DNA from: a virus | Virus record (IMG/VR): IMGVR_UViG_3300025108_000001 | Coordinates: 35,251 to 99,250 of that record | DNA: 64,000 nt | Reading direction: 5' to 3' (one strand) | Shown here: piece after piece, positions 23,451 to 64,000 of the stretch | How positions within the stretch are numbered: position 1 is the stretch's first letter | How the letters are laid out: the number at the start of each line of letters is the position of its first letter | Notes under the pieces: model-generated | Seen by the model: the letters and a program-made list of their open reading frames with translations, nothing else | Told to the model about the DNA's origin: nothing | Database searches by the model: none | Position numbers and translations under genes: made by a program

Positions 23451-24271
23451 ATTACATCACACTCACACATAAGGATTGTCTCGTAAATCTAGGACTTGAA
23501 ACTACTGAAACAGGTATAGCAATATTCCCTCAGTAGCAGAAGGTGTTAGTTGACCTTGTGGGAACTAGGGGTTTTTTACAGTAATAAGAACCGAGTAAAT
23601 AATTTGTTATCCTTAGCGGGATTGCAAGTTAAACCACTCAGAAGAAGATGCAGAAGTTTGCATTAGAAGAACCAAACCAAACAGTTGAGATTCAAACAAC
23701 TGAATTACAAGTAGCGAAAAATGACCTTCATCAGAACGGTAGTGAAGTAGCAAACGTCTTTCAAGTGCGAATTAATTCTTAGTAGGGTTGGGAAATCTAA
23801 AAAATGCTTTCTTTGGAAAAGGTATTTCCGAAGAACTAAGCGCAATAATGATGAAAGCAATTTTAGTCATGGTCTTTCGAGGCTATGCATTTGTAAGTAA
23901 TATTAGTAGTCGGCATAAGCAGTGAAACATCATTGGTAACATTTGACAATTGTTATCATACCACCTTCGTGTAAAGCGGCATAGTACGTTTTTTCTTTCC
24001 CCTTTCAAATTCAAAAATATCCTGTATGGGTTTTACCCTTACAAATGGACTTGTCTTTACTGTCATAGAGGCAAGTCCTACAACTCAAAATATCTTGATA
24101 ATTGATACTGTCATCTGATATAACTGAGTTAGGTTTTAGATAATAATAAATTGGATAAATTCGTTTCGTTCTGTAACGTGTTGGCATCTCCTATCTAGTC
24201 GTGTGGTGCGACCCAATTTTCCTAACTATCCCATTCCCAAATATAACAATAAAAATAAAGAGGAAATAAAA

Positions 24272-29605: not shown

Positions 29606-29809
29606 ATGAAATTGAGAATAATGAATGAAACAGGACACACAGATTTAGATGTTAATACATCTGAAATGATTGAACAGTTGGCAGAACACCCAACCCATTG
29701 GGTATATGTTGACGGAGACATGGTTAGCCGTGAATCTGTTAGCGATATTAATTGGGATGGCGTTGAATCTGTTAACCTAGTTCAAGCAATTGTTGGCGGA
29801 AACCAATAA
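29606..29809 (+). CDS. Ubiquitin-like beta-grasp protein (ThiS/MoaD/SAMP-like) ending in ...AIVGG-NQ
   Basis: 67 aa; MKLRI beta-strand start, VYVDG, V.LV.AIVGG C-terminus. Confidence 0.8.
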   Translation: MKLRIMNETGHTDLDVNTSEMIEQLAEHPTHWVYVDGDMVSRESVSDINWDGVESVNLVQAIVGGNQ

Positions 29810-29956
29810 ATCTGCTTTAGTTCTAGTCTATCTTATCATAGATATAAAATCTATCGGTAATTACTATATGGTATTCACTACCGTAAAGTATTCCTAGTAA
29901 CAGGAGACGTTATCGGACGGGTGCAAAGCCCGTTAACAAAATAATGTGGGATAAAA

Positions 29957-30169
29957 ATGAAATGTAGAATATGTAAACAGAAATTAGGAACAAGAAATCA
30001 TACTTCTAGAAAAAAAACAACAACTAATTTATGTTTCAATTGTATAAGAAACCCTCCCCTTGAAGAAAGGTGCAAGGGGATAACAGTAAAAAATAAAAAA
30101 TGTAAATTAATTAAGAGAAACAATAGTGATTATTGTAAAATACATTCATCAAGAGAGACCATCAAATGA
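29957..30169 (+). CDS. Small Zn-finger protein
   Basis: CRIC, CFNC, C-x8-C-x9-C-x2-H. Confidence 0.65.
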   Translation: MKCRICKQKLGTRNHTSRKKTTTNLCFNCIRNPPLEERCKGITVKNKKCKLIKRNNSDYCKIHSSRETIK

Positions 30170-30483
30170 AGTATTACAATAAAAATAAGCCTGACGAGGA
30201 ATACCTACATATTTGTAGGGAAGTTCTAGTTGACACCATTATCGGTGCGGGTAACAAAAATAATGTATCTCATTCCTTTTGGAGAAGAAATAAAAAGGAC
30301 ATATCATATAGATTATTATGGTATAATATAGTTAGTCATATTATTAACGGCAACTCAACACTCAAAACAGTAGAAGAATTACATAATTTTATCTACTATT
30401 CAACAAAACAAATTAAAAATAACAAAGAAAATAAATGGAGAGAAAAAAATGAAAATAAAAATAATAATACCCTCAGTAGGTGA
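30166..30483 (+). CDS. Hypothetical protein
   Basis: ORF track. Confidence 0.5.
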   Translation: MKYYNKNKPDEEYLHICREVLVDTIIGAGNKNNVSHSFWRRNKKDISYRLLWYNIVSHIINGNSTLKTVEELHNFIYYSTKQIKNNKENKWREKNENKNNNTLSR

Positions 30484-31822
30484 TGGAGGCAATACCTCAA
30501 CATCGAGTTTCCTACTTAGGATATCCAATAACCAAAAGAAAATGTATAAACAATTATTTACTGGAACAGTAGATAGAAAGGCAACTGAAATAAAACGGTT
30601 ATCAATCGAACCTACCCCTAGTAAACTATATGGTTCTGATAGAGTTATTATTAGAACACCCAAAAACATGAATCATAGAGGTGAACATATAATTAATTGC
30701 GGTAGAATTAGGATGAATGAAGTTAAAGATGGAATAGACCCTATTTTAGAAACGGTTTCTAAACAAGTAAAAAACAACTTATTTCCCACTAAAGATTACG
30801 ATACAGCAAAAGAAGATTTTATGAATAGTATTACCTTCAAATATTTTGACGGTAATGTTCGTATAATTTATGGAAGAACTAACAAGAGATATTATATCAA
30901 TACCTTACCTAGAAATAAAGCAGATATTGTCAAGGCAATCAGTAAAGTAATTCTAAGGGCTTCGCTTTCAAGAAGTTCAGTTCAATTGCGTGAGTATTTG
31001 AGAAAGGTAACTACTTTTCCTCATAATGTTCTTTATGCTTTAGAAAACAGAACACCTTATCACTTTTTAGATGAGTTCCGTAAGACTGATGTTGTTATTA
31101 ACACGAAACTAATAAGCGATAAAGAATGTGTTTTAGAAATATCTGATAGCACTTGGGGTGTAATGTCAACTAAAGAATTAAGCACTTTCATTGACTACTA
31201 TAAGTTCGGTAAGAAAAGGAGTAAGAAATGGAACATAAGAGTAGATAACGAGTTTCTTTGGACTGAATTGATGGGTAGTCCACCGACTAGAACAGAATTA
31301 GAAAAAATGAAACAATGGTTATTGCAACACCGAACTTCTAATATTATAGAAGATAGAGCAACTAAATTATTGTTCGACATTGCGGCTGAAACTCCTCAAC
31401 TTGATTTCGTGCAATTCAAAAATCCTAAGAATAAAGCACTGTTCGTTCATGGAAAATATTCTGATTGGGTTATTACTTATACCGGAGATGGTATGAAAAG
31501 AGGTAATCAAGATGTCAATACCCATCAAATAGTAGGGTTCAGTCAAGAAAAAGGTAATTGGCATGGTATGAAACTTTCAGGTTCAATTTGTATTGACAAC
31601 GTTTCTAAAGGTGCTAGTATCGGAGACCAACTAACAGCGAGGGCATTAGCATTAATCAATGAAGATATAGCGGCACATCATCTTTACACAATTAAACCGT
31701 TAATAACAGAAGATTTAAGAAATGGTGTTAAAGTAATGCCGAGATTAGACAGGAGTAAATTAAATGCGTGGAGTCAAAGAAAGTGTGATGAATATTTACA
31801 CAAAAAAAAGGAGAATAAGTAA
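30449..31822 (+). CDS. Hypothetical protein; C-terminal domain is a candidate E2-like conjugating enzyme
   Basis: H-x5-GSICID Cys motif resembles the E2 active site (HPN...GxICL); lies between the Ubl and E1 genes; fold unverified. Confidence 0.4.
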   Translation: MKIKIIIPSVGDGGNTSTSSFLLRISNNQKKMYKQLFTGTVDRKATEIKRLSIEPTPSKLYGSDRVIIRTPKNMNHRGEHIINCGRIRMNEVKDGIDPILETVSKQVKNNLFPTKDYDTAKEDFMNSITFKYFDGNVRIIYGRTNKRYYINTLPRNKADIVKAISKVILRASLSRSSVQLREYLRKVTTFPHNVLYALENRTPYHFLDEFRKTDVVINTKLISDKECVLEISDSTWGVMSTKELSTFIDYYKFGKKRSKKWNIRVDNEFLWTELMGSPPTRTELEKMKQWLLQHRTSNIIEDRATKLLFDIAAETPQLDFVQFKNPKNKALFVHGKYSDWVITYTGDGMKRGNQDVNTHQIVGFSQEKGNWHGMKLSGSICIDNVSKGASIGDQLTARALALINEDIAAHHLYTIKPLITEDLRNGVKVMPRLDRSKLNAWSQRKCDEYLHKKKENK

Positions 31823-31905
31823 ATGAAAATATGTAATAAATGTAAAAAAGAATTAGGAGACCTTCGGGTTAAAGATGGCGATTGTTGTAGAATAATGGTG
31901 ATGAA

Positions 31906-32895
31906 ATGAAGTGTGTTGAATGCGACTGCACCACTACAACCTTCGATGAAAGAATGGGTGAAACTATTTGTTCTGATTGTGGTTTGATATTATCAGTAAA
32001 TATGTTTGAAGAAACTAGTGTATCAGTCAGAAGTAATGACAAAGCATTGGGTAATTCCTTTTCTAAAATCCGTGATGCTGACTTTAACGGATTGGGTTCA
32101 ATGATTGGAAGACAAGATATTACAAACAGGAAGACCTTCTATTTATTTGAAGAACAAAGAAGGACTGTTTATGATTCATCGACAACAAACTTTAGGCTAT
32201 CTGCAAGTATGTTCTTATCATATTATAATGGTAAAAAACTACTACAAGAAGCAACAAGGAAATATAAAACTATGAAAGAAGAACACTTAGTAAGAGGACT
32301 ACCAATAGAAAACGTAGCGGCGGGAATAGTTTATTATGTGTTAAAAGACAAGGGAATATCTGTTTCATTGAAAGAGTTTTCAAGACAAAGTAAAATACCT
32401 ATTAAAAATATATTAAGGACTTCCAAAAGAGCGAAGAAGAAGTTCGGTTGTACTGATTTCAATTTTATAAATATAGATAATATAATAACTGAAACCATAG
32501 AACGTATTCGTGTTAGACAACAAGATACAATAACAATACACAATCGAAAACACAAAGGTTCTGAAGGCCATGTGAGATATAAAAACAACCGTACCAGTTT
32601 TGAAGATATTCAAGGAGACTTAAGACGAGATTGTTATAGGTTCGCTGAATATGTTAAGAGATGTTATGATTTGTTCGATGAGACTTTAACTAAAAGCGAC
32701 ATAATAGCGTCAATGTGGGTAGTGTCTCAGATTTATAATTCACAAAGTATCACTACTGCCGCACTATCAGAATGTGGTGGGTTTAGTGAAGTAACCTTAA
32801 GAGAAAAAAGAAAAAGAATTTGTTCTAATCTAAAATTAGATATAGACAAGATTAAACTTTATACTATTAATAATATAATAGACGGAGTAAGATAA
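31906..32895 (+). CDS. tfb: Transcription initiation factor TFB/TFIIB homolog
   Basis: N-terminal Zn ribbon (CVEC...GETICSDCGLIL); cyclin repeats (RGLPIENVAAGIVYY; SEVTLR). Confidence 0.85.
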   Translation: MKCVECDCTTTTFDERMGETICSDCGLILSVNMFEETSVSVRSNDKALGNSFSKIRDADFNGLGSMIGRQDITNRKTFYLFEEQRRTVYDSSTTNFRLSASMFLSYYNGKKLLQEATRKYKTMKEEHLVRGLPIENVAAGIVYYVLKDKGISVSLKEFSRQSKIPIKNILRTSKRAKKKFGCTDFNFINIDNIITETIERIRVRQQDTITIHNRKHKGSEGHVRYKNNRTSFEDIQGDLRRDCYRFAEYVKRCYDLFDETLTKSDIIASMWVVSQIYNSQSITTAALSECGGFSEVTLREKRKRICSNLKLDIDKIKLYTINNIIDGVR

Positions 32896-32896
32896 A

Positions 32897-33160
32897 ATGA
32901 TAAGAAGAAAAATAACAATGAAAACAGCAAGCGGAAGAACGACAATAGATGTAAATTATTGTACTGCCTTTTCTATAAGAGAGGTGAACAAGAAAGGAGT
33001 ATTATCTAAGGCTAAGTATGAATTAGATATACATATGCAAAGTGGTACTATATTTACAGCAGAAGCAGATGATAAGGAACTGTTAGTGTTCACTACGTTA
33101 TGGGAAACCAAACGTGAACATAACTTATCTGTAATAGAATTAAAAGAGGAATTAGAATGA
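32897..33160 (+). CDS. Hypothetical protein
   Basis: ORF track. Confidence 0.55.
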   Translation: MIRRKITMKTASGRTTIDVNYCTAFSIREVNKKGVLSKAKYELDIHMQSGTIFTAEADDKELLVFTTLWETKREHNLSVIELKEELE

Positions 33161-33786
33161 AAACAAAGAAATTAAAACAAAGAAAATTATTGATAATTGG
33201 AGCAGGTGGAATAGGTAGTTACCTAGCATCTTTCCTAGAAAGAATTAGTGAAAGAAGACAAGCACTGTATGACATCACAATTTATGATGATGATAAAGTT
33301 GAAGAAAAGAACTTATCCTATCAGAACTTCACAGTTGAAGATATCGGTCGCCCAAAGGTTTCTGTTCTAGGCGATAAGATAGGAATACAATCAGCGATAA
33401 CAGAAAAGAGAGAACATCAAGTTCTTACCGCTAAACAGTTAACTGAAAAGAAATATGATTTAGTAATCTGTTGTGTAGATAATCTTGCGGCAAGAAAACT
33501 CCTATACAAAACAGGACATGGTGAAGATAGTCCAGTAAAGTGGTTAGACCTTAGAGCGCAAGGTAGGAATGGAGTATTGATTTCTTACAAAGTTAATCCT
33601 ATATTAATACCGGATTTATTAGCCGGAGCAGACGGTTCATTCAGTTGTCAAGGTGGTGATTGGGATGGTTCTGCTAAAGATATAAGTGCAATGCACATTG
33701 CCATAGCAGGTATTGCAACTCAATGGATACAGCGTTGGTTTAACGATAATAATGATGTTATAGATAAAATGGTGGTGAATGTATGA
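33157..33786 (+). CDS. ThiF/E1-like ubiquitin-activating enzyme
   Basis: IIGAGGIGS, DDDKVEEKNLSYQNF, DIGRPKV, CVDNLAAR, WLD; candidate catalytic Cys in FSCQ. Confidence 0.88.
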   Translation: MKTKKLKQRKLLIIGAGGIGSYLASFLERISERRQALYDITIYDDDKVEEKNLSYQNFTVEDIGRPKVSVLGDKIGIQSAITEKREHQVLTAKQLTEKKYDLVICCVDNLAARKLLYKTGHGEDSPVKWLDLRAQGRNGVLISYKVNPILIPDLLAGADGSFSCQGGDWDGSAKDISAMHIAIAGIATQWIQRWFNDNNDVIDKMVVNV

Positions 33787-34028
33787 GTAGTGAAGAAGAC
33801 ACTGAAATTGATAATTTAATAGAAGAAGACGTAGGTAATATTGTTAATGTTATTTCTACTGATGGTTTCTACAAACAAGCAGAAATAGTAAAGGTAGTTT
33901 GTCCGGCTTGTCTAGAAGCGTTTCTAGGAACAAAAAGACACGCAGGTGGATTCATAGCCGGACACAGAACATACCATGAGTTTGAAAACTCTATGGATAC
34001 CTTGTTAGAACAAATGGGAGGAATATAA
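33783..34028 (+). CDS. C2H2-like Zn-finger protein
   Basis: CPAC...H-x3-H. Confidence 0.6.
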   Translation: MSSEEDTEIDNLIEEDVGNIVNVISTDGFYKQAEIVKVVCPACLEAFLGTKRHAGGFIAGHRTYHEFENSMDTLLEQMGGI

Positions 34029-34601
34029 ATGAAAGAAGAAATAAAAGAAGAAATGAATAATGAAGAAAATGAAAAAGCAATGAAGAACTTTGATTGGAAG
34101 GGACACATAAGAGATGTCTATAAAGATATGAGTAACTCCGAAGGTGGTGTTAATTTTATTAGACCATGTGCAGATACAGAAACGTTTCTGTCTGCTATTT
34201 GGCAGATGTCTGATGAAGTTTTAGAAGGAATGGAAGTACAAGTAGTAATAGACGATAAAGATGATTTGTATATTAGTAGCGGCACACCCGCTTTCGTATC
34301 TTTTCAAGGACACGAAGATGAATTAACTAACGGTGAACCTATGAGAATACCGATTAAGAGTTGGATACATACTCATCCCTTCGGAGAAGCATATCTAAGC
34401 AGTACTGATTGGAGAACTGTAAATACTTGGAATACTATGATGAAGAGTGCAATAGTACTTGGGGATAATCAGTACCTTGCTGTTAACATGAATAATGAAC
34501 AATACGAAAAAGGAACTTACTCCGCAAAGAAAGTTTTCTACGGTTTAATACAACAAACTGTTTTTGATGACATAGAACCTACAATGGGTGGTGAAGAATA
34601 A
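34029..34601 (+). CDS. JAB/MPN+ (JAMM) metalloprotease
   Basis: Upstream Glu (MEVQ) plus WIHTHPFGEAYLSSTD (H-x-H-x7-S-x2-D). Confidence 0.85.
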   Translation: MKEEIKEEMNNEENEKAMKNFDWKGHIRDVYKDMSNSEGGVNFIRPCADTETFLSAIWQMSDEVLEGMEVQVVIDDKDDLYISSGTPAFVSFQGHEDELTNGEPMRIPIKSWIHTHPFGEAYLSSTDWRTVNTWNTMMKSAIVLGDNQYLAVNMNNEQYEKGTYSAKKVFYGLIQQTVFDDIEPTMGGEE

Positions 34602-35489: not shown

Positions 35490-35894
35490 ATGGGAAACCG
35501 CAAGGCGGTTACTATTCAGTTCCCTGCCCCACTACCTGCTGAAATTCTATGTCCTATTTGTGAAGGAAACAAATGTAAAGTTTGTGAGATGACAGGTAAG
35601 ATGAAGTTAGTAGTCGATGCTAAAGTACCAATACAAAGAAATCTAATAGTGAAATATGTTTCTAATCATTTAGAATCTATTGCATTAGAATTATCTAGAA
35701 ACTATGGTCTAGTTCCTGAAGTTAATACAGAAGAAGTATTTGAGTGTGACGAGAAAAGACAATATGAAATTGTAAAGATAAGTAGTTTAGGTGGGGTGAT
35801 TTGGGTAGCAAATAGATTAGATGATTTAGAATCACCTAGATATTTTACCACACTTAAGGAACTTACTAGATTTAAGGAAGGTTGGTTTACATGA
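35490..35894 (+). CDS. Zn-finger protein (CPICEG..CKVC..TG)
   Basis: DnaJ-type CxxCxG repeats. Confidence 0.6.
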   Translation: MGNRKAVTIQFPAPLPAEILCPICEGNKCKVCEMTGKMKLVVDAKVPIQRNLIVKYVSNHLESIALELSRNYGLVPEVNTEEVFECDEKRQYEIVKISSLGGVIWVANRLDDLESPRYFTTLKELTRFKEGWFT

Positions 35895-44811: not shown

Positions 44812-46512
44812 TTGATAATTAATGAAATAAAAAATGGTATAGGATTAGTTTGGAGAGATGAAAATAATAACAGACTGCAAGAAACTGTTTCTTTGAAAGA
44901 CTTCAAACATTACTTTTTCATTAAGGCTACGTCAACTAGACATACTAATTTGTTAGTTAAAGACAACAATACAAGAGGCAACTTTCAAGTTGACCTGTCT
45001 TATGAATTAGGAGATTGGGTATCTCTCGAAGGTGAATCTTTGGTGAAGGTTTCTTGGGGTACTAAATCTCCTAGTCTTAGGTATCAAATTAGAGAGAAGT
45101 TAGAAGAGTTAGGTGTTGATACTTACGAAGCAGACATACCACATCATTATCGGTATGCTGTTGATGAGTTAAATTCTATCCCTGATTATAAAATGCGTAA
45201 GTGTTTTTGGGATATGGAATGGATGCAAGGCGGAGAACATGATGGTAAGATTACTTGTATAGTAATATACGATAATTATGATGATGAGTATAGTGTATTC
45301 GCTTGGTTTCCTAACTTAGAAAAGAAACTTAGTATGGAGTTCCTTTACAAACTAAGAAGGAATTATAACTTAAAAATATTCAAGTCAGAAGAATCTATGC
45401 TTGACAACTTCTTAACCTATTTTATTCAGAAGAGACCGGATATGTTAATCTCATGGTTCGGTTGGAAATTCGACCTACCTAAACTAATAGAGAGAAATAG
45501 TGCTTACAATATTGATTCGAGAATGTTATCTCCCTTTAATGAAGTAAGGGGAGTTTCTTGGAAGGATAACAAAGTTAAGATATATCCTAAACAAGTAAAC
45601 GGGTCTTCTCCTATAACACAACCTATTAAGGGAGTAATTACAGTAGCATTAGATTTAGTCTTTGAAAGACAATGGAACGATTCACAAAGAGGAACATTAC
45701 CTTCTATGGCGTTAGATTATATTTCTGAATCTGTTTTAGGCGATAAGAAATTAGTTAGTGAAAAGTTTCCTGATAAAAATGAGTTCTTTGCTAGAGGTTG
45801 GTTAGAAGATACTGAAACATATTTAGAGTATGCAATAAAGGATGTTGAGTTAATCAAAAGAATTGATGATGAAAACCATTGTATTGATTCAGTATTAGCA
45901 TTACAAAAATTACTAATTGCTCCTTTCGATGCTTGCTTCTATGCAAGTAATATGGGTGGAATATATTTCATGCGTAACGCTACTTGGAAAGCACCAACAG
46001 GTAAGAAAGGTGAGAAAGTTAACTATGATGGAGCAATGATTTACAATCCATTAACGGAAGGCACGAATGGTAGATATGATAATGTAGCAGCGTTTGATTT
46101 TGCAGGGCTATATCCTTCAATGATTATTTCACGGAATATTTCGTGGGAATCTAAATCAAAAGTACCAACAGAGTTTGCAGTTAACCTAGCAATACCTAGA
46201 GATTTTAGTGAAGTTAAAGAAGAGAAGATGTTGTATTACAATACAGATAAGTTAGGATTGTTACCCCAATCACTAATAGGACTTAAGAAGTTAAGAAATG
46301 AATATAAAACAAATATGAAAGAAGCATCTTCCAAAGATGAAAAAGTAAAGTGGAATAATAATCAAATGGCTGTCAAAAGATTGATGGCTTCATTTTATGG
46401 TATTACAGCCTATCAAGGATTTGGTTGGGCTGATATAGACCTAGCCGCTAGTATTACTGCTAGTGCTAGAGAGGCAATTAGATTAGCCGCATTTAAGGCG
46501 AGGGAATTATAA
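44812..46512 (+). CDS. polB: Family B DNA polymerase, N-terminal part (exonuclease plus motifs A and B)
   Basis: YEADI, WDMEW (ExoI), FDLP (ExoII), YAIKD (ExoIII), FDFAGLYPSM (motif A), KRLMASFYG (motif B). Confidence 0.92.
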   Translation: MIINEIKNGIGLVWRDENNNRLQETVSLKDFKHYFFIKATSTRHTNLLVKDNNTRGNFQVDLSYELGDWVSLEGESLVKVSWGTKSPSLRYQIREKLEELGVDTYEADIPHHYRYAVDELNSIPDYKMRKCFWDMEWMQGGEHDGKITCIVIYDNYDDEYSVFAWFPNLEKKLSMEFLYKLRRNYNLKIFKSEESMLDNFLTYFIQKRPDMLISWFGWKFDLPKLIERNSAYNIDSRMLSPFNEVRGVSWKDNKVKIYPKQVNGSSPITQPIKGVITVALDLVFERQWNDSQRGTLPSMALDYISESVLGDKKLVSEKFPDKNEFFARGWLEDTETYLEYAIKDVELIKRIDDENHCIDSVLALQKLLIAPFDACFYASNMGGIYFMRNATWKAPTGKKGEKVNYDGAMIYNPLTEGTNGRYDNVAAFDFAGLYPSMIISRNISWESKSKVPTEFAVNLAIPRDFSEVKEEKMLYYNTDKLGLLPQSLIGLKKLRNEYKTNMKEASSKDEKVKWNNNQMAVKRLMASFYGITAYQGFGWADIDLAASITASAREAIRLAAFKAREL

Positions 46513-46856
46513 TGAGTAAAAGATGGAAGAAAAGAGTCAATCAAAACAATAAAGATACAATGAAATTATCTGAATTAATAGCATTAATGATGAGTAAATA
46601 TGCCATGTCCGAAGAAGAACACAACGCAATATTAACTTGGGAAGAGTTCAATATTAATATAGAAAGGCAGACTACATCAGAAGAACAAGCAAAGCAGACA
46701 TTTTCAATAGAAGCAATTGCAGGTGTTACTGCCACCTTTCATCTTTGGCTCTTAGGAAGAGTAAAGGATAGGTGGGAATCAGAAAATTGGGATTCAGATA
46801 AAGCACCCCATGCTATTTCTGTTAATGCTAAAGTGGATTGGAGTAATGACATATGA
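46512..46856 (+). CDS. Hypothetical protein between the two polB halves
   Basis: 114-aa ORF overlapping both neighbours. Confidence 0.6.
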   Translation: MSKRWKKRVNQNNKDTMKLSELIALMMSKYAMSEEEHNAILTWEEFNINIERQTTSEEQAKQTFSIEAIAGVTATFHLWLLGRVKDRWESENWDSDKAPHAISVNAKVDWSNDI

Positions 46857-47779
46857 AAGTAGTTTACGGACACACGGATTCAATTTATGTTCAATGTGAT
46901 GATATAGAAAAAGCAAAGAACGTTTGTAGTGAAATTAACGATTATGTTAGGGAATCCTTTCCTAATCTATTAGGTCTAGATGAACACCCTGTCACTTTAG
47001 AGTTTGAAAAGTATTACAAATCTCTTGGAGTTGGTGCAACAAAGAATAGAAATGCAGGGTTAATAACTTGGAAGGATGGAGAGTATCTTGAAGAAGATGA
47101 GTTTGTTCTTACAGGTTTTTCTGCTAAAAGAGTTGCACAAACAAAACTAGCAAAGGAAACACAAATGAAAGTGTTGCGAATGTGGGTTGATGGTGTTGAA
47201 GAAGAAGAAGTTTCTAATTACTTACACGGGTTATTTAACACTGTTATTTCCGGCGATATAGAACTATCAATGCTTACTAACAGAACTAGATTTCGTGAAG
47301 AGAGATTTAAGGTAAAATGTATGGGAGAATGTAAAAAAATGAAATGGGGAAAGGTTTTCTCACTATCAGAAATCATTGAGAATATTACAAAACACCGCAG
47401 AAGTTTTTCTAGTGATAAATGGAAATGTTGTAATAAACCTAATCTTAGAACATTACAAGATAAGAGACCTACAATTGGTTCAGGTATAGAAGGAGTATTG
47501 TTTTACAATTCCTTTAATGAAGTGCAAATAGATGACTCCTACCTTTACATTAAGATTAAGGGTAACAACACAACTTACATTCATCCTCTAACTCAAGAAG
47601 ATACTATCCCTTCTTGGGTTTCAGTTAAGCATGAATCAGAACTATCTAACTTTACTCCTGACTATTTGCATTATGCTTATCAAGTAGTTAGTAAGGCAGA
47701 ACCCATCTACAATGCAATGGGTTGGAATATAGATAATATTACTAAAAGTAGAAATCAAGATTTGGGGGATTGGTTTTGA
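46853..47779 (+). CDS. polB: Family B DNA polymerase, C-terminal part (motif C and thumb)
   Basis: VVYGHTDSIYV, LEFEK, KNRNAG; PIP-like end NQDLGDWF. Confidence 0.9.
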   Translation: MKVVYGHTDSIYVQCDDIEKAKNVCSEINDYVRESFPNLLGLDEHPVTLEFEKYYKSLGVGATKNRNAGLITWKDGEYLEEDEFVLTGFSAKRVAQTKLAKETQMKVLRMWVDGVEEEEVSNYLHGLFNTVISGDIELSMLTNRTRFREERFKVKCMGECKKMKWGKVFSLSEIIENITKHRRSFSSDKWKCCNKPNLRTLQDKRPTIGSGIEGVLFYNSFNEVQIDDSYLYIKIKGNNTTYIHPLTQEDTIPSWVSVKHESELSNFTPDYLHYAYQVVSKAEPIYNAMGWNIDNITKSRNQDLGDWF

Positions 47780-56677: not shown

Positions 56678-59600
56678 TCATGTATTATTCTGCATTGTAA
56701 TTGCGTAAAAGGTTGCAGTTAAGGTTGCAGTTGTACCTTGTTTATTTTGATACCTTATTCTAATAGTATCGTCACTTGAATCATAATCTGCCGCCAGTGT
56801 TCCTATTCTTGCAGAGCCATCAAACAATATAGCCCATTCAGTAAAGTTAACTGCCCTTACAGTAGTTCCCAATACTGTTTTTTCTGTTGCTTGAACTAAC
56901 GCCTTGAAAGATTCTACCTCTTCGTTAGTTTCATCTTCTATCTGAATTGTTAGTTCTATTGTCTGTAATCCACTTGCTCCTGTAAATGAATCTAAATCCA
57001 TATTCATTAATTCAATATATCCATCGTTTGCTGTTGAAACGCTACTAACTTCACCTGCAACTATACCTGCTTCATTGTTAGCACCGAAGTATATTCCTGA
57101 TGTTGTTCCACTTGTTCCTGAACCTATTGTTACATCGGTAATAGTTTCAAATGCGGATTCTATTGCGACACCATTGTTTGTTAATCCATTAGGGAAATCT
57201 ACTACACCTGTTGAAGCACCTGTAATCCAAGTAGGCGAACCATCACCTGATGCGATAACTAATTGGTCATTACCTGTTGCAGACGGCACATCAGCACCAC
57301 CAATAACTACGTTGTTAGAACCTGTTGTAATATTATTTCCGGCATCATAACCAATTGTAATGTTTTTATCAGCAGTTGTTATTAAATCCCCCGCACCGAA
57401 TCCTATACCTATGTTGTTGTTGCCTGATGTTACATCATTTAAGGCACTATTACCAAGAGCAATATTCAAAGAACCTGTTGTAGTATTATACAACGTTGAA
57501 GGCCCAATTGCTACGTTATTACCTGAAGATGTCATTTGATGACCATACAAGGCCATTCTACCTATTGCTACATTATTATTAGAAGATGTAGTTACGTTAG
57601 TATTTCCCTGACCTGCATACTGACCAATAAATGTATTACTTTCCCCCCGAGTCCATTGACCTGCACCACCACCTATAATTGTTGAATAAGACCCTATCGC
57701 TGTTCTATTACCGGCATCTGCGCCAATAGCAGTAACCCATGTTTGTTCACCATTAACTGTTCCTCTATTCCCAGCACTACTACCAATAAATACATTCTTT
57801 TGAGAATTAAGGCCGGTATTTTGCCAGTATTTACCTGCACTGTTTCCAACCATTACATTGTTAAAGCCCTCAGCATATTGACCTGCACTTTGTCCTATTG
57901 CTACTGTGCTACTTGAGTCTGCTGATTCAGACAGCGCATTAGAACCAATTACTACTGTTTCGTGTTTATTTCCTGTTAATGACGAACCTGCATTATATCC
58001 AATCAACACAAGTTCCCTATTAGTTGTCAAAGCATCTCCGGCATAGTTACCAATAACTACGTTTTTCGTACCGCTTGTTAATGTTTTAAGTGCATCCTTA
58101 CCTATCCCTAAATTGTCATTGGCACTACTTAGTGTGCCATGTGGAGGTGCAGCATTATCAGGAGAAATTAGAATACTATCTGTAAAGTTAGTAATGTTAC
58201 TAATTACATCTGTTAAACCATTAAGAGCAGAAGCACCGCCACCTGCGGCATCTTCCCAAGCAACACCGCTTCCTGTTGAAGTTAGGATTTGGCCGTCAGA
58301 ACCTTGTCCTCCATTTACTTTGAAGTTTTCAGCATCAACTAATCCAAAGAAAGAATCCTTGAACTTGAGAGATGAAGTACCTAAATCAACATCGTTATCA
58401 GTTGCCGGATATAACTTACCATCTTGAAGATAGACTTGGTAATCCCCACCTGCTTGTAAGCCTAGTCTATCTAATGAATACATATAATTTATTGCACCTC
58501 TAATACTATCACTAGAATTATAGAAGAAAATAGCACCATTATTAACAGCGTTATTTGTAGCGTCTTTCTTAAAATTAATTCTTGAATATTGATTATTTAT
58601 ATTTAACCCCGCATTATCCAAATTAACATCACTTGTGAATGTTTTAGCGCCACTAAATGTTTGTGTACCTGCTAATGTAGCATCACCCGCAGTACCCCAA
58701 CTAAAAGAACCATCACCATCTGATAATAATGCGTCACCACTACTACCATTACCACTAACATTTAATTGGTCTGCTCCTATACCATCATCAGCAACCTTCA
58801 AAGTTAATTCGAATGGAGTACCTGTATCTCCTGTGCTTACATCTGTAAAGGTAATATCTAAACCATTACCTTCATTAAACTTAATAAATCTACCATCAGG
58901 AATAAGAACATCTGTATCTGAACTGTCTCTTACAGTAAAGGCCATTTTAGCAGGTAATGCTCCGAATGTTCCATCATGCTTTAAGAAATGTCCTGTTGTA
59001 CCTGCTGATGGCAAAACACCACCATTACCTGTTCCAACTAAAGTTCTAATTTCTGGCGCAGTTAAATCATCAGTAGCATCAGCATCTCCTGTAAAACCTA
59101 AGTCTGCTAATGTTAAGTTTCTTGTGGCTATTGTAGCATTAGCATCTGTAACGTGTCCTAATGTATCAGTAGTTATATTGAGGTCTAAATCTGAAATAAC
59201 AGTTGCACCCGATAATAATGTTGTATCAATATCTATATCATCTCCATCATGTGTAGGATGAGTATAATTATTAGCATTTTCAGCAATATTATCTAATTTT
59301 GATTTTAACGCATCAGTAAAGTCGTTTTCTGTAAGACCACCATCACCTACTGAATATGTAGTGTTTGTATAATTAGAAGAATGAATTGTTCCCGCACTAC
59401 TACTCGTCCAATCTATTACTTTATTAGCAGTTAAAGCACCGACATATCCCCATTGTGTCGCATTAATTGTTGCAGTACCAATGTTTTCTAACTGCTCTCC
59501 TTCTGATGCTGTTAAATTAGAAAGTTCAGTTACTTGTGATATAGCAATTGTTTTATTTGTTAGTATGTCAGTAGTGTCTCTCCCAATTAAAAACGCATTA

Positions 59601-62600
59601 GCATTAGGTAAAGTAATAGTTCTATCAGCAGTAGGGTCAGTAATAGTTAATGTAGTCTCATAATCATCAGAAGTAGCCCCTTCAAAGACAATAGCATTAG
59701 CCGCTTCCATAGTTACTGTGTCTATTTGTGTTGTTGTACCCGCTACATTCAAATTAGGAACTAATAATGTTCCTGTGCTTGGATTGTATCTTAAAGCCCC
59801 TGTATCATCATGTAATGCACCTGTGCTTTCGTTTGCGAAAACAACAGGGAAGTTAGTGTTATCAGTATTATCTGTAACTAAGATTATATTGTCAGAACCA
59901 TCAAAAGATACTCCGCTAATTGTTCTTGCTGTTTCCAGTGCAGTTGCAGTTGGAGCAGTACCAACTGCTAAATTTATTTTACCTGCTCCTACACCGCCAT
60001 CTGCATAGGTTGCACTTATTCCTGTTTCAGTATTAGTAGCAAACATTGCACCTACTATATCTTGAACCTGTTCTGTCGTTATTTGAGCAGAAGATATACT
60101 AGTTAAACCGCCTAATAGATTTAATTCAGTAGCACTAACAGTAACAGCAGTACCCGCAATAGATAATTTACTATCGGGAATATCAAAGGTAGCATTATCT
60201 TTTATTCTTGCTACTTCTGTACCGTCATATTGTTGAAAGATAATTTCCTTTCCATCCACTGCGGGCATTATAATAGCATCAGAAGTTCCTATTGTTCCAC
60301 TAGAAGTAGGGGTTGTTAATCTTAGATATGGGGCTATTCCTCCTTCATATCCCTGCCAAAAATAAGTTCCTTTGTTTGCACCGAGTCCGGCACTACCTAT
60401 CAATACTCTATCGCCACCAATAATTTCCATAGAACCGAATGTTCCAGTACTACCTGTTTCATTAGCAATATATGACCTATGAACATTACTAGTAGTATCT
60501 GATGTTATTCTTAAATAATCGTCTGTATTTATATCATCATAAACAAGTAGCCCGTCTGAACTAGAAGTGCCTGTAACTTTTAGTTTACCAGTAAAGGCAG
60601 GGTCATCAGTAGGTTGTTTAGCAGTATTTGCAGCAATATCACCAATTGATGAAAGTTGAGCATCTGTTATTAGGTTCTTATCAGTTCCACTTGTAAAATT
60701 AGTAGTTGTAAATGTAGGTGTTGCCCCACTAATAACAGATTGGTCTAATGCTTTAACATGAGCAATTGCTGTTAATTCGCTATCCATTAATGCACCTGCT
60801 GATGTAACATTTGCTGTATCTGTAACATCAGCACCCGCTTCTATACCACTTAACACATGAGATTTGAGAACTGATATATCCATTCTCTTTAATGCGCCAC
60901 TACCACTATTTTCACCTGCATCATTAAGAATTAATTCATCCGTATCAGCAAGTCCTGTTGTTAATGCCGTAGCACCTGTAATATCTCCTACACCGAAGTT
61001 AGATGCACCACTAGCAGATGCACCAATAGCAGTTCTAAAGTCCGAAGCACTTAACGCTGAAACACCATTATCGGCATCCATTCTAAGAAATCTTATTGCA
61101 CCTGTATCTGCTAATGTAAATACTTCTGCACCAAAAGTAGAAGCACCCAAAGCAGTTCTAGCCGCAGTAGAATGCGCGGCAGTAATTACTGAAATCATTG
61201 GTGCATATACTTCTCCTATTACACCTTCTGTTGCGGCAAGTCTTCCTAAGAAGATATTACCCGTTTCACCTGCACCAATGTTTTGCATTTTTGTAAAGGT
61301 AACAGCATCATTAGCCAACAAACCACTAGTAACTGAACCTGCTGTTCCTATTGTAGTGTCTAAAGTAGCACTAAAAACACCACTTCCATCTTTACCTAAT
61401 CTTAAAAGACCGTTTGAACCTGTGCTTGGGTCTGCAATATGAAACGCTTTAATTCCTACATTAGTAGCACCTAAGTTTGCTAATGCATTTGTTTGTTGAG
61501 TTGAGTTTAAACTTTGATTATTAACATCTACTCTCAATCTATTCCCTAAAGAAGTAGCCATAGTGGTTGAAAATGAAGCATCATCACCTAAAGCCGCAGC
61601 CAATTCGTTTAGAGTATTTAATGCATCAGGTGATGAATCAACAAGATTTGAAATTTGAGTTCCAACATATGATACTATTGATTGTTGAGTAACAAGATGG
61701 TTTGCTGAATTAGAGGTCATAGCATCTTCATCTTTGACAGGAACAACAAAGTCTAAATTTCCATTAACATCATCATATCCTACTGTAATGAAAGTTTCTG
61801 TTCCGTCAAGCATACCCCCTACAAAATCTTCTATTTCTTCTTGAGTGCGAATAGTTTTAAGAGTATTAGCATCTATTTCCGCGAGTAATGTATCTGCTAA
61901 CTTATCTTCTGTTATTGCATCATCAGCAATTCTGTCTGTTCCGAAAGTTCCGTCAGTAATTTTATCAGCGTTTAGATTGGGAATATCTGTTGCCGCTAAG
62001 TCGGGAGTAAATGCATTACCTGCACTTAATGATAAACCGCTACCTGCTGTATAAGTAGTATTTGTATCAGTAAATACAGCATTAGACGGAACATTCTTTC
62101 CAACAGTAAAAGTAGATACAGTATCAGCATCAATAGTCATTGCATTAATTTCACTAGCAGTTAATTGTGCAATAGGTGCAAGATTAGTTAATACAGAAGT
62201 GCTGTTAAGATAAGTTGTTAATTGAGCAACAGTCATTTCCCTGAGAGCAGAGTTAGATGTATCATGTATTACGAATGAATCACCCGCAGCAAGAGAGTCT
62301 AGATTTGCTGCACCTGTTATATTACTAGCACCTAAAACAACAGAAGTTAGATATGTATTAGTATCTAAACTTGTGCTAAGAGTCCCATTTGTATTTGTTA
62401 ATTTTAATAACCCATTAGTATTATTGTTAGGATTTGTAGTAGCAACTATTTTTTCACCAATTGTAGTTACATCATCTAGTATGTCAAAATGAGCAGATGT
62501 CAATAACCCTGCCGCACTTGTTGTCGCGGCTGAATATGTGGTATCTTGAGTAGGGATTGTAAAATCAGCATCGGGTATAGTTACTGTTCTATTTGCAGTA

Positions 62601-64000
62601 GGTTCTGTAATACGAAGTGTAGTTTTTTCATCACCACTATCAGTATCATAACTGAATACTAAAGCATCTTGAACATCTATTTCTGTCTTATTTAAAGTAG
62701 TTGTTGTTCCCAGAACATTTAGATTACCTTTGATATTAATAGTGGTATCATTACCTGAATCACCAATGTTTAAAGTATCATCACCAGTATAACTTCCTAA
62801 TACTGTTGAAAGGTTTACCTTAGAAACATTTGAATCTGTATTTGTTATTGAACCGGATGCAGCACCAAGATAACCCCATTGTGCTGCTGTAATTGTAGTT
62901 GCTCCTATGTTTTGTATTGCTGTTATTTCTGATGCTGCTAAATCGTTGGTGAGAGCATAGACTGTATCTGTATTAACACTAGAAATATCCAAAGTTTGAT
63001 TAGTTCCACCCGATACAGTTGCCGTTATAGTTGAACCACTAAGAGATAATCCTGATAAAAATTTATTCGTGTCTGTATTAACACCCGAAATATCAACAGT
63101 TAAATCTGCTAAACTTCCTGTTCTACCTATTGTTAATGTACCGCTACTAAAAGAAGCAGCATCAACATAGTCATTACTATCAACAGAAGAACCCGCACCA
63201 ATAGAGGTTCTAAATGCAGTTGCTTGATTAGTAGTTAAATCATCTGCTCTTGCTAAAAGATTCGCTACGCTTACATTGTCAACTGCGGTATTACCTGCAA
63301 GAGCAGTACTAGATGTTGTTCCTAATGCTAAAGAACTTGTACCCGCACCAATATTACTCAATATTGTTGTTTTGTCATCATTATCAATACTAGTAGAAGC
63401 AACCAAAGCAGCAGTTACATTTGTTGCGTTAGCAGTTAGTTTAGCAGTATTAGTAGAAACAGCAGAAGCATCAGTATAACTAACTTTTGCAGTATTAAGA
63501 CCTATCGCAGTAACGTTAGTTGCTATGTTAGTCGCATTAGTCGTTATATTACTAGACATTGTGTTTAGGTTAAGTGCAGAATTAACAGTAAGGTGTCCTA
63601 CTTTCGTAGCGTCTGCTGATGGATATGTATTCTTAGCAGTATTAAGATTTAGAGCAGTAACTAAGTTTTGAGTGCTACCACCATTAGGTATAGTAATATC
63701 CCCTGTAAACGTGGGGTCGTCAAACATAGTAGTTTTACTTTCATTAGTTACATTCCCTAAACCTACATCAGAAGCAGTTGTACCTACATCTGAATGAGTT
63801 ACACCTGCTCTAATAGCAGCAGTAGTTATATCTGAAACATTGGTTAATCCTACCATTGCTTTAGTAATACCACTTACCGTTCCTGTAAATGTAGGACTAG
63901 CGAGATTAGCCTTTAAATCTAAAGCAGTTTGTTGTGCGGTTGAAACTGGTTTAGCAGTATCAGCAGTGTTGTTCACATTTCCTAATCCTACATCACTAGC
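56678..64000 (-). CDS. Very long tail fibre / receptor-binding protein (start lies beyond the window)
   Basis: More than 2430 aa, T/A/G/S-rich; VGLGNV.N repeats, PDALNTLNELAAALGDD, N.AIG beta-roll repeats, duplicated modules. Confidence 0.85.
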   Translation of the reverse strand, partial: ASDVGLGNVNNTADTAKPVSTAQQTALDLKANLASPTFTGTVSGITKAMVGLTNVSDITTAAIRAGVTHSDVGTTASDVGLGNVTNESKTTMFDDPTFTGDITIPNGGSTQNLVTALNLNTAKNTYPSADATKVGHLTVNSALNLNTMSSNITTNATNIATNVTAIGLNTAKVSYTDASAVSTNTAKLTANATNVTAALVASTSIDNDDKTTILSNIGAGTSSLALGTTSSTALAGNTAVDNVSVANLLARADDLTTNQATAFRTSIGAGSSVDSNDYVDAASFSSGTLTIGRTGSLADLTVDISGVNTDTNKFLSGLSLSGSTITATVSGGTNQTLDISSVNTDTVYALTNDLAASEITAIQNIGATTITAAQWGYLGAASGSITNTDSNVSKVNLSTVLGSYTGDDTLNIGDSGNDTTINIKGNLNVLGTTTTLNKTEIDVQDALVFSYDTDSGDEKTTLRITEPTANRTVTIPDADFTIPTQDTTYSAATTSAAGLLTSAHFDILDDVTTIGEKIVATTNPNNNTNGLLKLTNTNGTLSTSLDTNTYLTSVVLGASNITGAANLDSLAAGDSFVIHDTSNSALREMTVAQLTTYLNSTSVLTNLAPIAQLTASEINAMTIDADTVSTFTVGKNVPSNAVFTDTNTTYTAGSGLSLSAGNAFTPDLAATDIPNLNADKITDGTFGTDRIADDAITEDKLADTLLAEIDANTLKTIRTQEEIEDFVGGMLDGTETFITVGYDDVNGNLDFVVPVKDEDAMTSNSANHLVTQQSIVSYVGTQISNLVDSSPDALNTLNELAAALGDDASFSTTMATSLGNRLRVDVNNQSLNSTQQTNALANLGATNVGIKAFHIADPSTGSNGLLRLGKDGSGVFSATLDTTIGTAGSVTSGLLANDAVTFTKMQNIGAGETGNIFLGRLAATEGVIGEVYAPMISVITAAHSTAARTALGASTFGAEVFTLADTGAIRFLRMDADNGVSALSASDFRTAIGASASGASNFGVGDITGATALTTGLADTDELILNDAGENSGSGALKRMDISVLKSHVLSGIEAGADVTDTANVTSAGALMDSELTAIAHVKALDQSVISGATPTFTTTNFTSGTDKNLITDAQLSSIGDIAANTAKQPTDDPAFTGKLKVTGTSSSDGLLVYDDINTDDYLRITSDTTSNVHRSYIANETGSTGTFGSMEIIGGDRVLIGSAGLGANKGTYFWQGYEGGIAPYLRLTTPTSSGTIGTSDAIIMPAVDGKEIIFQQYDGTEVARIKDNATFDIPDSKLSIAGTAVTVSATELNLLGGLTSISSAQITTEQVQDIVGAMFATNTETGISATYADGGVGAGKINLAVGTAPTATALETARTISGVSFDGSDNIILVTDNTDNTNFPVVFANESTGALHDDTGALRYNPSTGTLLVPNLNVAGTTTQIDTVTMEAANAIVFEGATSDDYETTLTITDPTADRTITLPNANAFLIGRDTTDILTNKTIAISQVTELSNLTASEGEQLENIGTATINATQWGYVGALTANKVIDWTSSSAGTIHSSNYTNTTYSVGDGGLTENDFTDALKSKLDNIAENANNYTHPTHDGDDIDIDTTLLSGATVISDLDLNITTDTLGHVTDANATIATRNLTLADLGFTGDADATDDLTAPEIRTLVGTGNGGVLPSAGTTGHFLKHDGTFGALPAKMAFTVRDSSDTDVLIPDGRFIKFNEGNGLDITFTDVSTGDTGTPFELTLKVADDGIGADQLNVSGNGSSGDALLSDGDGSFSWGTAGDATLAGTQTFSGAKTFTSDVNLDNAGLNINNQYSRINFKKDATNNAVNNGAIFFYNSSDSIRGAINYMYSLDRLGLQAGGDYQVYLQDGKLYPATDNDVDLGTSSLKFKDSFFGLVDAENFKVNGGQGSDGQILTSTGSGVAWEDAAGGGASALNGLTDVISNITNFTDSILISPDNAAPPHGTLSSANDNLGIGKDALKTLTSGTKNVVIGNYAGDALTTNRELVLIGYNAGSSLTGNKHETVVIGSNALSESADSSSTVAIGQSAGQYAEGFNNVMVGNSAGKYWQNTGLNSQKNVFIGSSAGNRGTVNGEQTWVTAIGADAGNRTAIGSYSTIIGGGAGQWTRGESNTFIGQYAGQGNTNVTTSSNNNVAIGRMALYGHQMTSSGNNVAIGPSTLYNTTTGSLNIALGNSALNDVTSGNNNIGIGFGAGDLITTADKNITIGYDAGNNITTGSNNVVIGGADVPSATGNDQLVIASGDGSPTWITGASTGVVDFPNGLTNNGVAIESAFETITDVTIGSGTSGTTSGIYFGANNEAGIVAGEVSSVSTANDGYIELMNMDLDSFTGASGLQTIELTIQIEDETNEEVESFKALVQATEKTVLGTTVRAVNFTEWAILFDGSARIGTLAADYDSSDDTIRIRYQNKQGTTATLTATFYAITMQNNT

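Follow-up and report, generated by a model that had tools for sequence, protein, structure and literature searches.

The genes considered here lie on the plus strand of a 64,000-nucleotide stretch of viral DNA (the window; bases 35251-99250 of the 99,250-bp IMG/VR virus record IMGVR_UViG_3300025108_000001). They encode a 67-aa ubiquitin-like protein (Ubl; 29606..29809), a 457-aa multidomain protein with a candidate ubiquitin-conjugating (E2) domain at its C-terminus (p457; 30449..31822), a 209-aa single-domain adenylating enzyme of the ThiF type, which is the putative Ubl-activating enzyme (E1; 33157..33786), and a 190-aa JAB/JAMM metalloprotease (JAB; 34029..34601). A sequence-only reading of the window had grouped these four co-oriented open reading frames (ORFs) as a conjugation module, and all four are present at these positions on the plus strand. 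Here, we discuss the evidence for a view that we favour with modest confidence, namely that the virus brings its own pathway for ubiquitin-like conjugation, in which JAB would trim the tag, E1 would activate it and p457 would carry it to targets.

Sequence and structure of the four proteins

The Ubl gene begins at a conserved ATG (29606) downstream of an AAGGAAG Shine-Dalgarno site, and its homologues open with MKLRIMNE. The C-terminus reads AIVGG-NQ, as had been described from the sequence alone; V63, G64 and G65 do not vary among 25 homologues, whereas the tail beyond them is variable and zero to two residues long (NQ, SQ, SC, NC, TQ, FY, CY, IR, C, N, Y or none). In the window protein NQ forms a two-residue precursor tail. 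The codons of the glycine pair (GGCGGA) do not represent the ribosome-binding site of the following gene, since the next ORF begins ~150 nt away. The predicted structure is a β-grasp fold, in agreement with the earlier proposal, and it matches MoaD, ThiS and CysO equally well as ubiquitin. Searches of Pfam, NCBIfam, PADLOC and PHROGs returned no significant match, and a PDB profile search was likewise empty, with no sequence similarity to ubiquitin. Members of this family were encountered on virus-sized contigs only.

E1 consists of one Rossmann domain and matches the Pfam ThiF family (PF00899) with an E-value of 1.5e-18 (67.3 bits, cut-off 28.1). Its top NCBIfam models are PRTRC_ThiF (TIGR03736; 63.7 bits, cut-off 144.75) and ThiF (63.3 bits), and as both score far under their cut-offs E1 fits no named equivalog. 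The model for UbaA-type SAMP-activating enzymes (NF047750) yields 38.1 bits against a cut-off of 450. The PADLOC E1-E2 and BilD models match the Rossmann part only (BilD over residues 9-121), and the architecture of BilD-type enzymes, comprising IAD and AAD domains, a CYS insertion and a Zn site, is not found. By sequence, ThiF and MoeB are the nearest proteins of solved structure, and the alignment with Escherichia coli ThiF extends over residues 24-135 of the latter, covering the GxGxxG, DDD and DNxxxR motifs. The nucleotide-binding site is intact, with GxGxxG, the acidic DDD, the G..K lysine and DNxxxR all invariant; across 11 aligned sequences the invariant residues are G15, G17, G18, G20, D44, D46, K67, D108, N109, R113 and C164. 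Cys164 lies within GSFSCQ, 56 residues past the invariant Asp108 of the DN motif, and thus about at what we take to be the position of the crossover-loop cysteine of ThiF (Asp127/Cys184 in that enzyme). The enzyme had been described earlier as a ThiF/E1 protein with a lone SC motif; the family assignment and the invariance of the SC cysteine stand, whereas Cys164 is not the sole conserved cysteine, C105 and C106 being invariant too.

JAB carries the complete zinc-site motif E..HxHx7SxxD, with E69, H114, H116, S124 and D127 invariant in 12 homologues. There is no Pfam match and a PADLOC scan returned a generic JAB model only (0.015); the family profile matches AMSH-LP (1e-4), STAMBP (2e-4) and the Rpn11-like protein 6fjv (1.6e-3). 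The initial call of a JAMM protease at 34029 is therefore upheld by the invariant motif and the AMSH/Rpn11-like profile matches together.

The p457 family comprises 143 representatives at 50% clustering, and all sampled members reside on virus-sized contigs of up to ~91 kb. An alignment of 44 homologues, reaching down to 14% identity, retains seven invariant columns only, among them Cys381, which lies in the family consensus GPICIDN...GDQ..R (GSICID in the window protein). Of the H...GSICID motif that had drawn attention to this protein, the cysteine is thus retained and the histidine is lost: His372 falls in a gappy, unconserved stretch, so that the family does not share the 'H...C' half of the motif. 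In the predicted model, which is of good quality (predicted local distance difference test score, pLDDT, 83.5; predicted template modelling score, pTM, 0.71) a UBC/RWD-like domain occupies residues ~294-437 (nt ~31328-31759). From residue 296 its elements run α1-β1-β2-β3-β4-loop(Cys381)-α2-α3-α4, with three to four closing helices, which we take to be the order of a UBC domain.

A Foldseek search with p457 gave no significant match, its most probable rows being E2s. E2, UEV and RWD domains dominate both Foldseek-seeded and unbiased structure searches, at low Z (4-5.8). Against a library of viral structures, three full-length homologues came top, followed by a low-scoring giant-virus E2 (prob 0.84). 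A few low-quality structure rows place residues ~200-425 on the tandem RWD domains of Knl1, and hint that the domain preceding the C-terminal one may also be RWD-like. An ESM Atlas feature search for the C-terminus was uninformative. The fold of the C-terminal domain as modelled is likely UBC-like; the earlier suggestion of a UBC fold with its cysteine at the active position is compatible with the predominance of E2/UEV/RWD rows, albeit at low Z, and with the conservation of the cysteine, whose placement follows from the order of elements and range interpolation only. As the invariant Cys381 sits in the right loop, a catalytic role is plausible, and p457 is plausibly the predicted E2 of the set. 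It is the weakest link of the four, yet one with real support, and a probable E2 of a virus-only family.

The virus and the conservation of the set

The record is classed in IMG/VR as bearing direct terminal repeats and is assigned a CheckV completeness of 100%. Its portal and terminase are encoded on the minus strand in the left part of the window, and the plus strand encodes a UvrD helicase, an ATP-dependent ligase, an RFC-like clamp loader, a Cas4-like nuclease, a TFIIB-like gene and a family-B polymerase split over two ORFs (44812-46512 and 46853-47779). A split polymerase of this kind has been described for magrovirus group B (PMC5434244). Given the presence of both a head-tail module and an archaeal-type replication module with split polymerase, the virus is a magrovirus, group B1-like. 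The genome is complete and belongs to an ocean virus of archaea; magroviruses reportedly abound as viruses of archaea in the surface ocean (PMC5434244). The genes for Ubl, p457, E1 and JAB are located in the replication/expression block, near those for a TFIIB-like factor (TFB) and the ligase, and are distant from the portal, terminase and tail genes.

Each of the 12 near-complete relatives, 11 of which were chosen by way of the terminase, gives one match apiece for Ubl, p457, E1 and JAB, all within a few kb. As every relative holds all four genes, this amounts to conservation with no presence/absence contrast. About 25 related IMG/VR loci share the order p331-p86-Ubl-(variable)-p457-TFB-p87-E1-p81-JAB-p102-p168-p134-ligase, and in one relative (G003) 470 nt separate the Ubl gene from p457, and E1 and JAB follow shortly downstream. 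Three divergent loci (L040-L042), in which p457 is ~20% identical, are more telling for linkage than the close syntenic ones: Ubl (VGG+2), p457, a short TFB-like gene, E1, JAB, p134 and p81 are still grouped there, p81 having moved, and p331, p86, p87, p102, p168 and the ligase were not detected. The synteny expected of the four genes is hence borne out by their co-occurrence in near-complete relatives and in divergent loci, as part of a linkage that is not specific to them.

When genome contigs were searched with a profile of the E1 alignment, only two contigs were found, both in bins of bacterial metagenome-assembled genomes (MAGs), namely an Altibacter MAG (NZ_NZTP01000016.1; L123) and a Maricaulis MAG (NZMJ01000073.1; L124). 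Both carry E1-JAB-p134-p81 with a p457 relative upstream, at a GC content of ~0.38-0.41, and Ubl was detected in the first of the two only. They are probably mis-binned virus contigs.

Proposed conjugation, its rivals and known systems

From the folds, motifs, invariant residues and co-conservation, which were obtained directly, we infer every chemical step of the pathway, the hand-off from E1 to p457 and the existence of targets. The 67-aa Ubl would be made with a two-residue tail beyond Gly-Gly, and this tail would be removed by the JAMM protease, which would probably reverse conjugates as well. E1, probably a homodimer like ThiF and MoeB, would then adenylate the exposed glycine and load the Ubl on Cys164, from where it would be handed on to p457, at Cys381 of the UBC-like C-terminal domain; the N-terminal domains of p457 may help to select target lysines of host or virus. 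The virus-borne protein-tagging pathway that had been suggested from the sequence alone is retained here in so far as the Ubl, E1 and JAB make up, with an E2-like cysteine protein, a coherent and conserved set; its E2 assignment emerges weaker, with low Z and no sequence match. The purposes suggested for it, directing host proteins to the archaeal proteasome or countering host Ubl-based defence, are speculative.

A more specific proposal can be put forward tentatively, and we would not lean on it. Magroviruses may possess a complete E1-E2 cascade with a virus-only E2 family, in which a catalytic UBC-like domain is fused to RWD/UBC-like and N-terminal domains to act as a combined E2/E3. If true, this would be the first case of a prokaryotic virus with a self-contained ubiquitin-like conjugation system; the system would rewire host protein stability or mark viral proteins, and would operate in hosts whose own tagging, of the SAMP type, is not known to need an E2.

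Several observations weigh against a conjugation pathway. E1 lacks both an N-terminal Arg-bearing segment and a CxxC zinc site, and a tyrosine (Y55, in KNLSYQ, invariant in the family) replaces the arginine of the NLxRQ motif (NLQRQ) of ThiF and MoeB. With both this arginine and the N-terminal segment missing, contacts to the ATP phosphates must differ from those in ThiF and MoeB, and the protein would be an unusual and unusually small enzyme of predicted activity. For p457, the top single structure match is the ELF domain of FANCL, a UBC-like domain that is not known to be catalytic; RWD domains are not known to be catalytic either. Searches of Pfam, NCBIfam, PADLOC and PDB profiles linked p457 to none of the E2 families or PDB chains, an HPN motif is missing upstream of Cys381 and p457 does not conform to canonical E2s (Pfam UQ_con), and Cys381 was placed by secondary-structure order and range interpolation, not by residue-level superposition. 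Linkage alone is weak evidence of a functional tie, because the whole block, including TFB, the ligase and others, is syntenic in the lineage. Finally, the Ubl model resembles MoaD and ThiS no less than ubiquitin. In the thioquinolobactin pathway the sulfur carrier QbsE likewise has a GG+2 tail and is trimmed by the JAMM protease QbsD, so that trimming of this kind alone does not exclude a sulfur carrier; the earlier argument that the tail and JAB form a coherent set therefore holds as to coherence but not as to specificity for conjugation.

One alternative is E2-independent tagging, in which Ubl, E1 and JAB would act as in archaeal SAMPylation, where E1 suffices to drive conjugation, and p457 would be an unrelated conserved virus protein (for example a regulator acting with TFB), its UBC/RWD-like domain serving as a binding module. 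The evidence on Ubl, E1 and JAB fits this too, a TFB-like gene always follows p457, and p457 lacks a sequence match to E2s and has the FANCL ELF domain as its top structure match and many RWD domains among its rows, neither known to be catalytic. Euryarchaeal SAMPylation is not known to need an E2. We nevertheless regard this reading as rather unlikely: a cysteine that is invariant across 44 sequences, down to 14% identity, in the β4-α2 loop where E2s hold their catalytic cysteine is difficult to account for in a domain that serves binding alone, and E1 is not UbaA-like (38 bits with the SAMP-E1 model, against a cut-off of 450).

It seems improbable that the Ubl is instead a sulfur carrier of the ThiS/MoaD type, which would be trimmed by JAB, adenylated by E1 and thiocarboxylated by a sulfur donor, so that an enzyme of the host could thiolate cofactors, tRNA or metabolites, on the model of QbsE/QbsD/QbsC or CysO/Mec. 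Such a role would suit the place of ThiF and MoeB as nearest solved sequence relatives of E1, the fit of the Ubl model to MoaD, ThiS and CysO, which is no worse than to ubiquitin, and the precedent of JAMM trimming in thioquinolobactin synthesis; moreover, one JGI record labels a Ubl homologue 'sulfur carrier protein ThiS', and viral ThiF has been treated as a MoeB-type auxiliary gene in publications (PMC8276007). However, MoaE, the PP-loop ATPase family ATP_bind_3, rhodanese and ThiG gave no match in the whole 99,250-bp genome, with positive controls, which extends to the complete genome the earlier remark that the window is free of sulfur-pathway genes, although the partner could be the host's. 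E1 itself has no rhodanese domain, a UBC-like cysteine protein always accompanies the set, and the genes are placed in the replication/expression block by TFB and the ligase, away from metabolic genes. A pure interference role, with JAB and Ubl acting on a host Ubl system as deconjugase and decoy, is highly improbable, as a decoy needs neither an E1 with invariant active site and cysteine, nor a conserved, processable GG tail, nor a conserved cysteine carrier.

Taken as a conjugation pathway, the viral set has its closest working analogue in the bacterial BilABCD systems of Types I and II (PMC10557695; class 6 of Iyer and Aravind, PMC1779556). In these systems JAB pre-processes the Ubl to expose its glycine, the cysteines of E1 and E2 are both required for conjugation, and BilD is built as a pseudo-dimer of IAD and AAD with a CYS insertion and a Zn site (PMC10557695). 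The virus has, in common with Bil-like operons, a β-grasp Ubl with a masked C-terminal glycine, a predicted E1 adenylation domain with a cysteine, and a JAB/JAMM peptidase. In contrast to Bil, the E1 of the virus is made up of one adenylation domain of 209 aa that lacks a CxxC site, and the E2-like domain forms the C-terminal end of a 457-aa multidomain protein that does not resemble BilB in sequence. The viral genes extend over 5 kb, with the TFB gene and small ORFs interspersed; the carrier is an archaeal virus, whereas Bil resides in a bacterial defence island. In the PADLOC scan (E up to 1) the BilA, BilB and BilC models gave no match, Ubl and p457 returning nothing and JAB the generic model only.

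Similarities extend to other systems. The Caldiarchaeum-type operon of ubiquitin, E1, E2, small RING and Rpn11 (PMC3082918, PMC5654768) has an archaeal setting, the same gene set and a small zinc-binding protein by JAB, and the viral JAB profile matches the Rpn11-like 6fjv (1.6e-3). By comparison, the viral Ubl has no sequence similarity to ubiquitin, the viral E1 is far smaller, there is no HPN-type E2, and the small protein p81 next to JAB has at most five candidate ligands and is not a RING. The ThiS/MoaD-ThiF/MoeB systems with JAB trimming (QbsE/QbsD, CysO/Mec) likewise combine a ThiF-type E1 and a JAMM protease with a β-grasp carrier whose GG end bears a removable tail, but the viral genome contains no sulfur acceptor or rhodanese gene and encodes an additional UBC-like cysteine protein. 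Haloarchaeal SAMPylation by SAMP, UbaA and HvJAMM1 (PMC4443979, PMC2948915) likewise combines an archaeal Ubl, an E1 and a JAMM protease; it has no E2, whereas the viral E1 is not of the UbaA type and the viral Ubl family occurs on virus-sized contigs only. The TAPI Ubl and TAPK JAB of lambdoid and T1 phages (PMC1779556) are also a virus-encoded Ubl with C-terminal glycine plus a JAB, but this pair belongs to a tail module and has no E1 or E2, whereas the magrovirus genes belong to the replication/expression block. UbaA-type SAMPylation and the TAPI/TAPK pair were accordingly rejected as identities of the set, on E1 score and gene context. The PRTRC system was rejected as well, as PRTRC ThiF scores under its cut-off and no other PRTRC model was matched among the 10 proteins scanned.

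Most likely, the viral set is a Ubl conjugation pathway akin to the known Bil-like sets of Ubl, E1, E2 and JAB, with maturation by JAB, a minimal E1 and a new E2-like carrier. We found no mention of ThiF, ubiquitin or JAB in the magrovirus papers that were searched. A paper on host prediction ranks a MoeB/ThiF gene with the auxiliary genes that are most prevalent in archaeal viruses, and ties it loosely to ubiquitination, mentioning only this gene of the set (PMC8276007). Most magrovirus genes have no assigned function, and a tag, an activator, a carrier and a trimming protease together would provide a prokaryotic virus with a self-contained pathway of protein modification. If this holds true, a minimal 209-aa E1 and a new E2-like family would become available for comparison with the bacterial Bil, Bub and cyclic-oligonucleotide-based antiphage signalling (CBASS) systems and with eukaryotic ubiquitination. 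Given their small size, the parts should suit reconstitution in vitro, though virus and host are both uncultured.

Neighbouring genes and further observations

The four genes are interleaved with others on the same strand. Between p457 and E1 lies the context gene for the TFIIB-like transcription factor (31906..32895; Pfam Zn_Ribbon_TF 9.1e-7, TFIIB repeat 6.5e-4), and the divergent loci L040 and L042 likewise have a short TFB-like ORF between these two genes. The small protein p87 (32897..33160), which has no family match, overlaps the start of E1; its position varies, and it follows JAB in five loci (L011, L013, L015, L022 and L023). The genes from TFB through p168 overlap or abut, suggesting one operon.

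Between E1 and JAB is encoded p81 (33783..34028), a small zinc finger-like protein by its motif, CPxC...H..GH...H, with 35 of its 81 columns invariant. It stays with the module in L040-L042 and in the two MAG contigs despite rearrangement. No PDB sequence was matched, and an Atlas feature search was uninformative, its nearest clusters being all viral. The C-terminal MGGI of p81 is encoded by ATGGGAGGAATATAA, which is the Shine-Dalgarno site of the JAB gene. A candidate role of p81 as a second Ubl, on the basis of its GG+1 ending, was rejected, as these codons are the GGAGG ribosome-binding site of JAB and the motif is that of a zinc finger. The CPxCxGxxCxxC protein p134 (35490..35894) is conserved, being 60-97% identical in close loci; it adjoins JAB in divergent relatives too (L041, L042, L123 and L124), and has one weak, unconvincing Pfam match only. 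Both p81 and p134, which have no known family, could be accessory, perhaps E3-like, parts. None of p81, p87, p102, p168, p331 and p457 has a significant match in Pfam, NCBIfam, PADLOC or PHROGs.

Glutamate is the C-terminal residue in 18 of the 52 plus-strand ORFs of at least 60 aa between positions 24000 and 54000 of the window, often as EE or EEE (MGGEE, KSEE, LWEEE). We suspect that these tails are a by-product of the Shine-Dalgarno site of the next gene, as at the p81/JAB junction. A terminal GG or EE in this genome therefore calls for caution and for a check of the DNA before it is read as a protein signal.

The first 5,440 bases of the record recur identically as its last 5,440 (window 58561-64000). 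This repeat interrupts a 2,432-aa ORF on the minus strand, and it could reflect an overlap left by the assembly of a circularly permuted genome, not a true terminal repeat.

In two unrelated, low-GC marine phage contigs a 340-aa JAB and a 230-aa ThiF-type E1 are adjacent (L026:4947-6648, L027:4932-6636). Their E1 is 27-33% identical to that of the magrovirus; the flanking proteins are ~400 and ~220 aa in size, and there is no obvious small GG protein. A 407-aa protein upstream of the pair was rejected as a p457 relative (hhalign probability 0.1).

Finally, the interval between Ubl and p457 differs between loci. It holds two small ORFs in the window (29957-30483), and in several relatives a gene for a ribonucleotide reductase-like protein of ~630 aa, identified by eye (L011:1631-3532, L022:1527-3416, L040:7471-9348).

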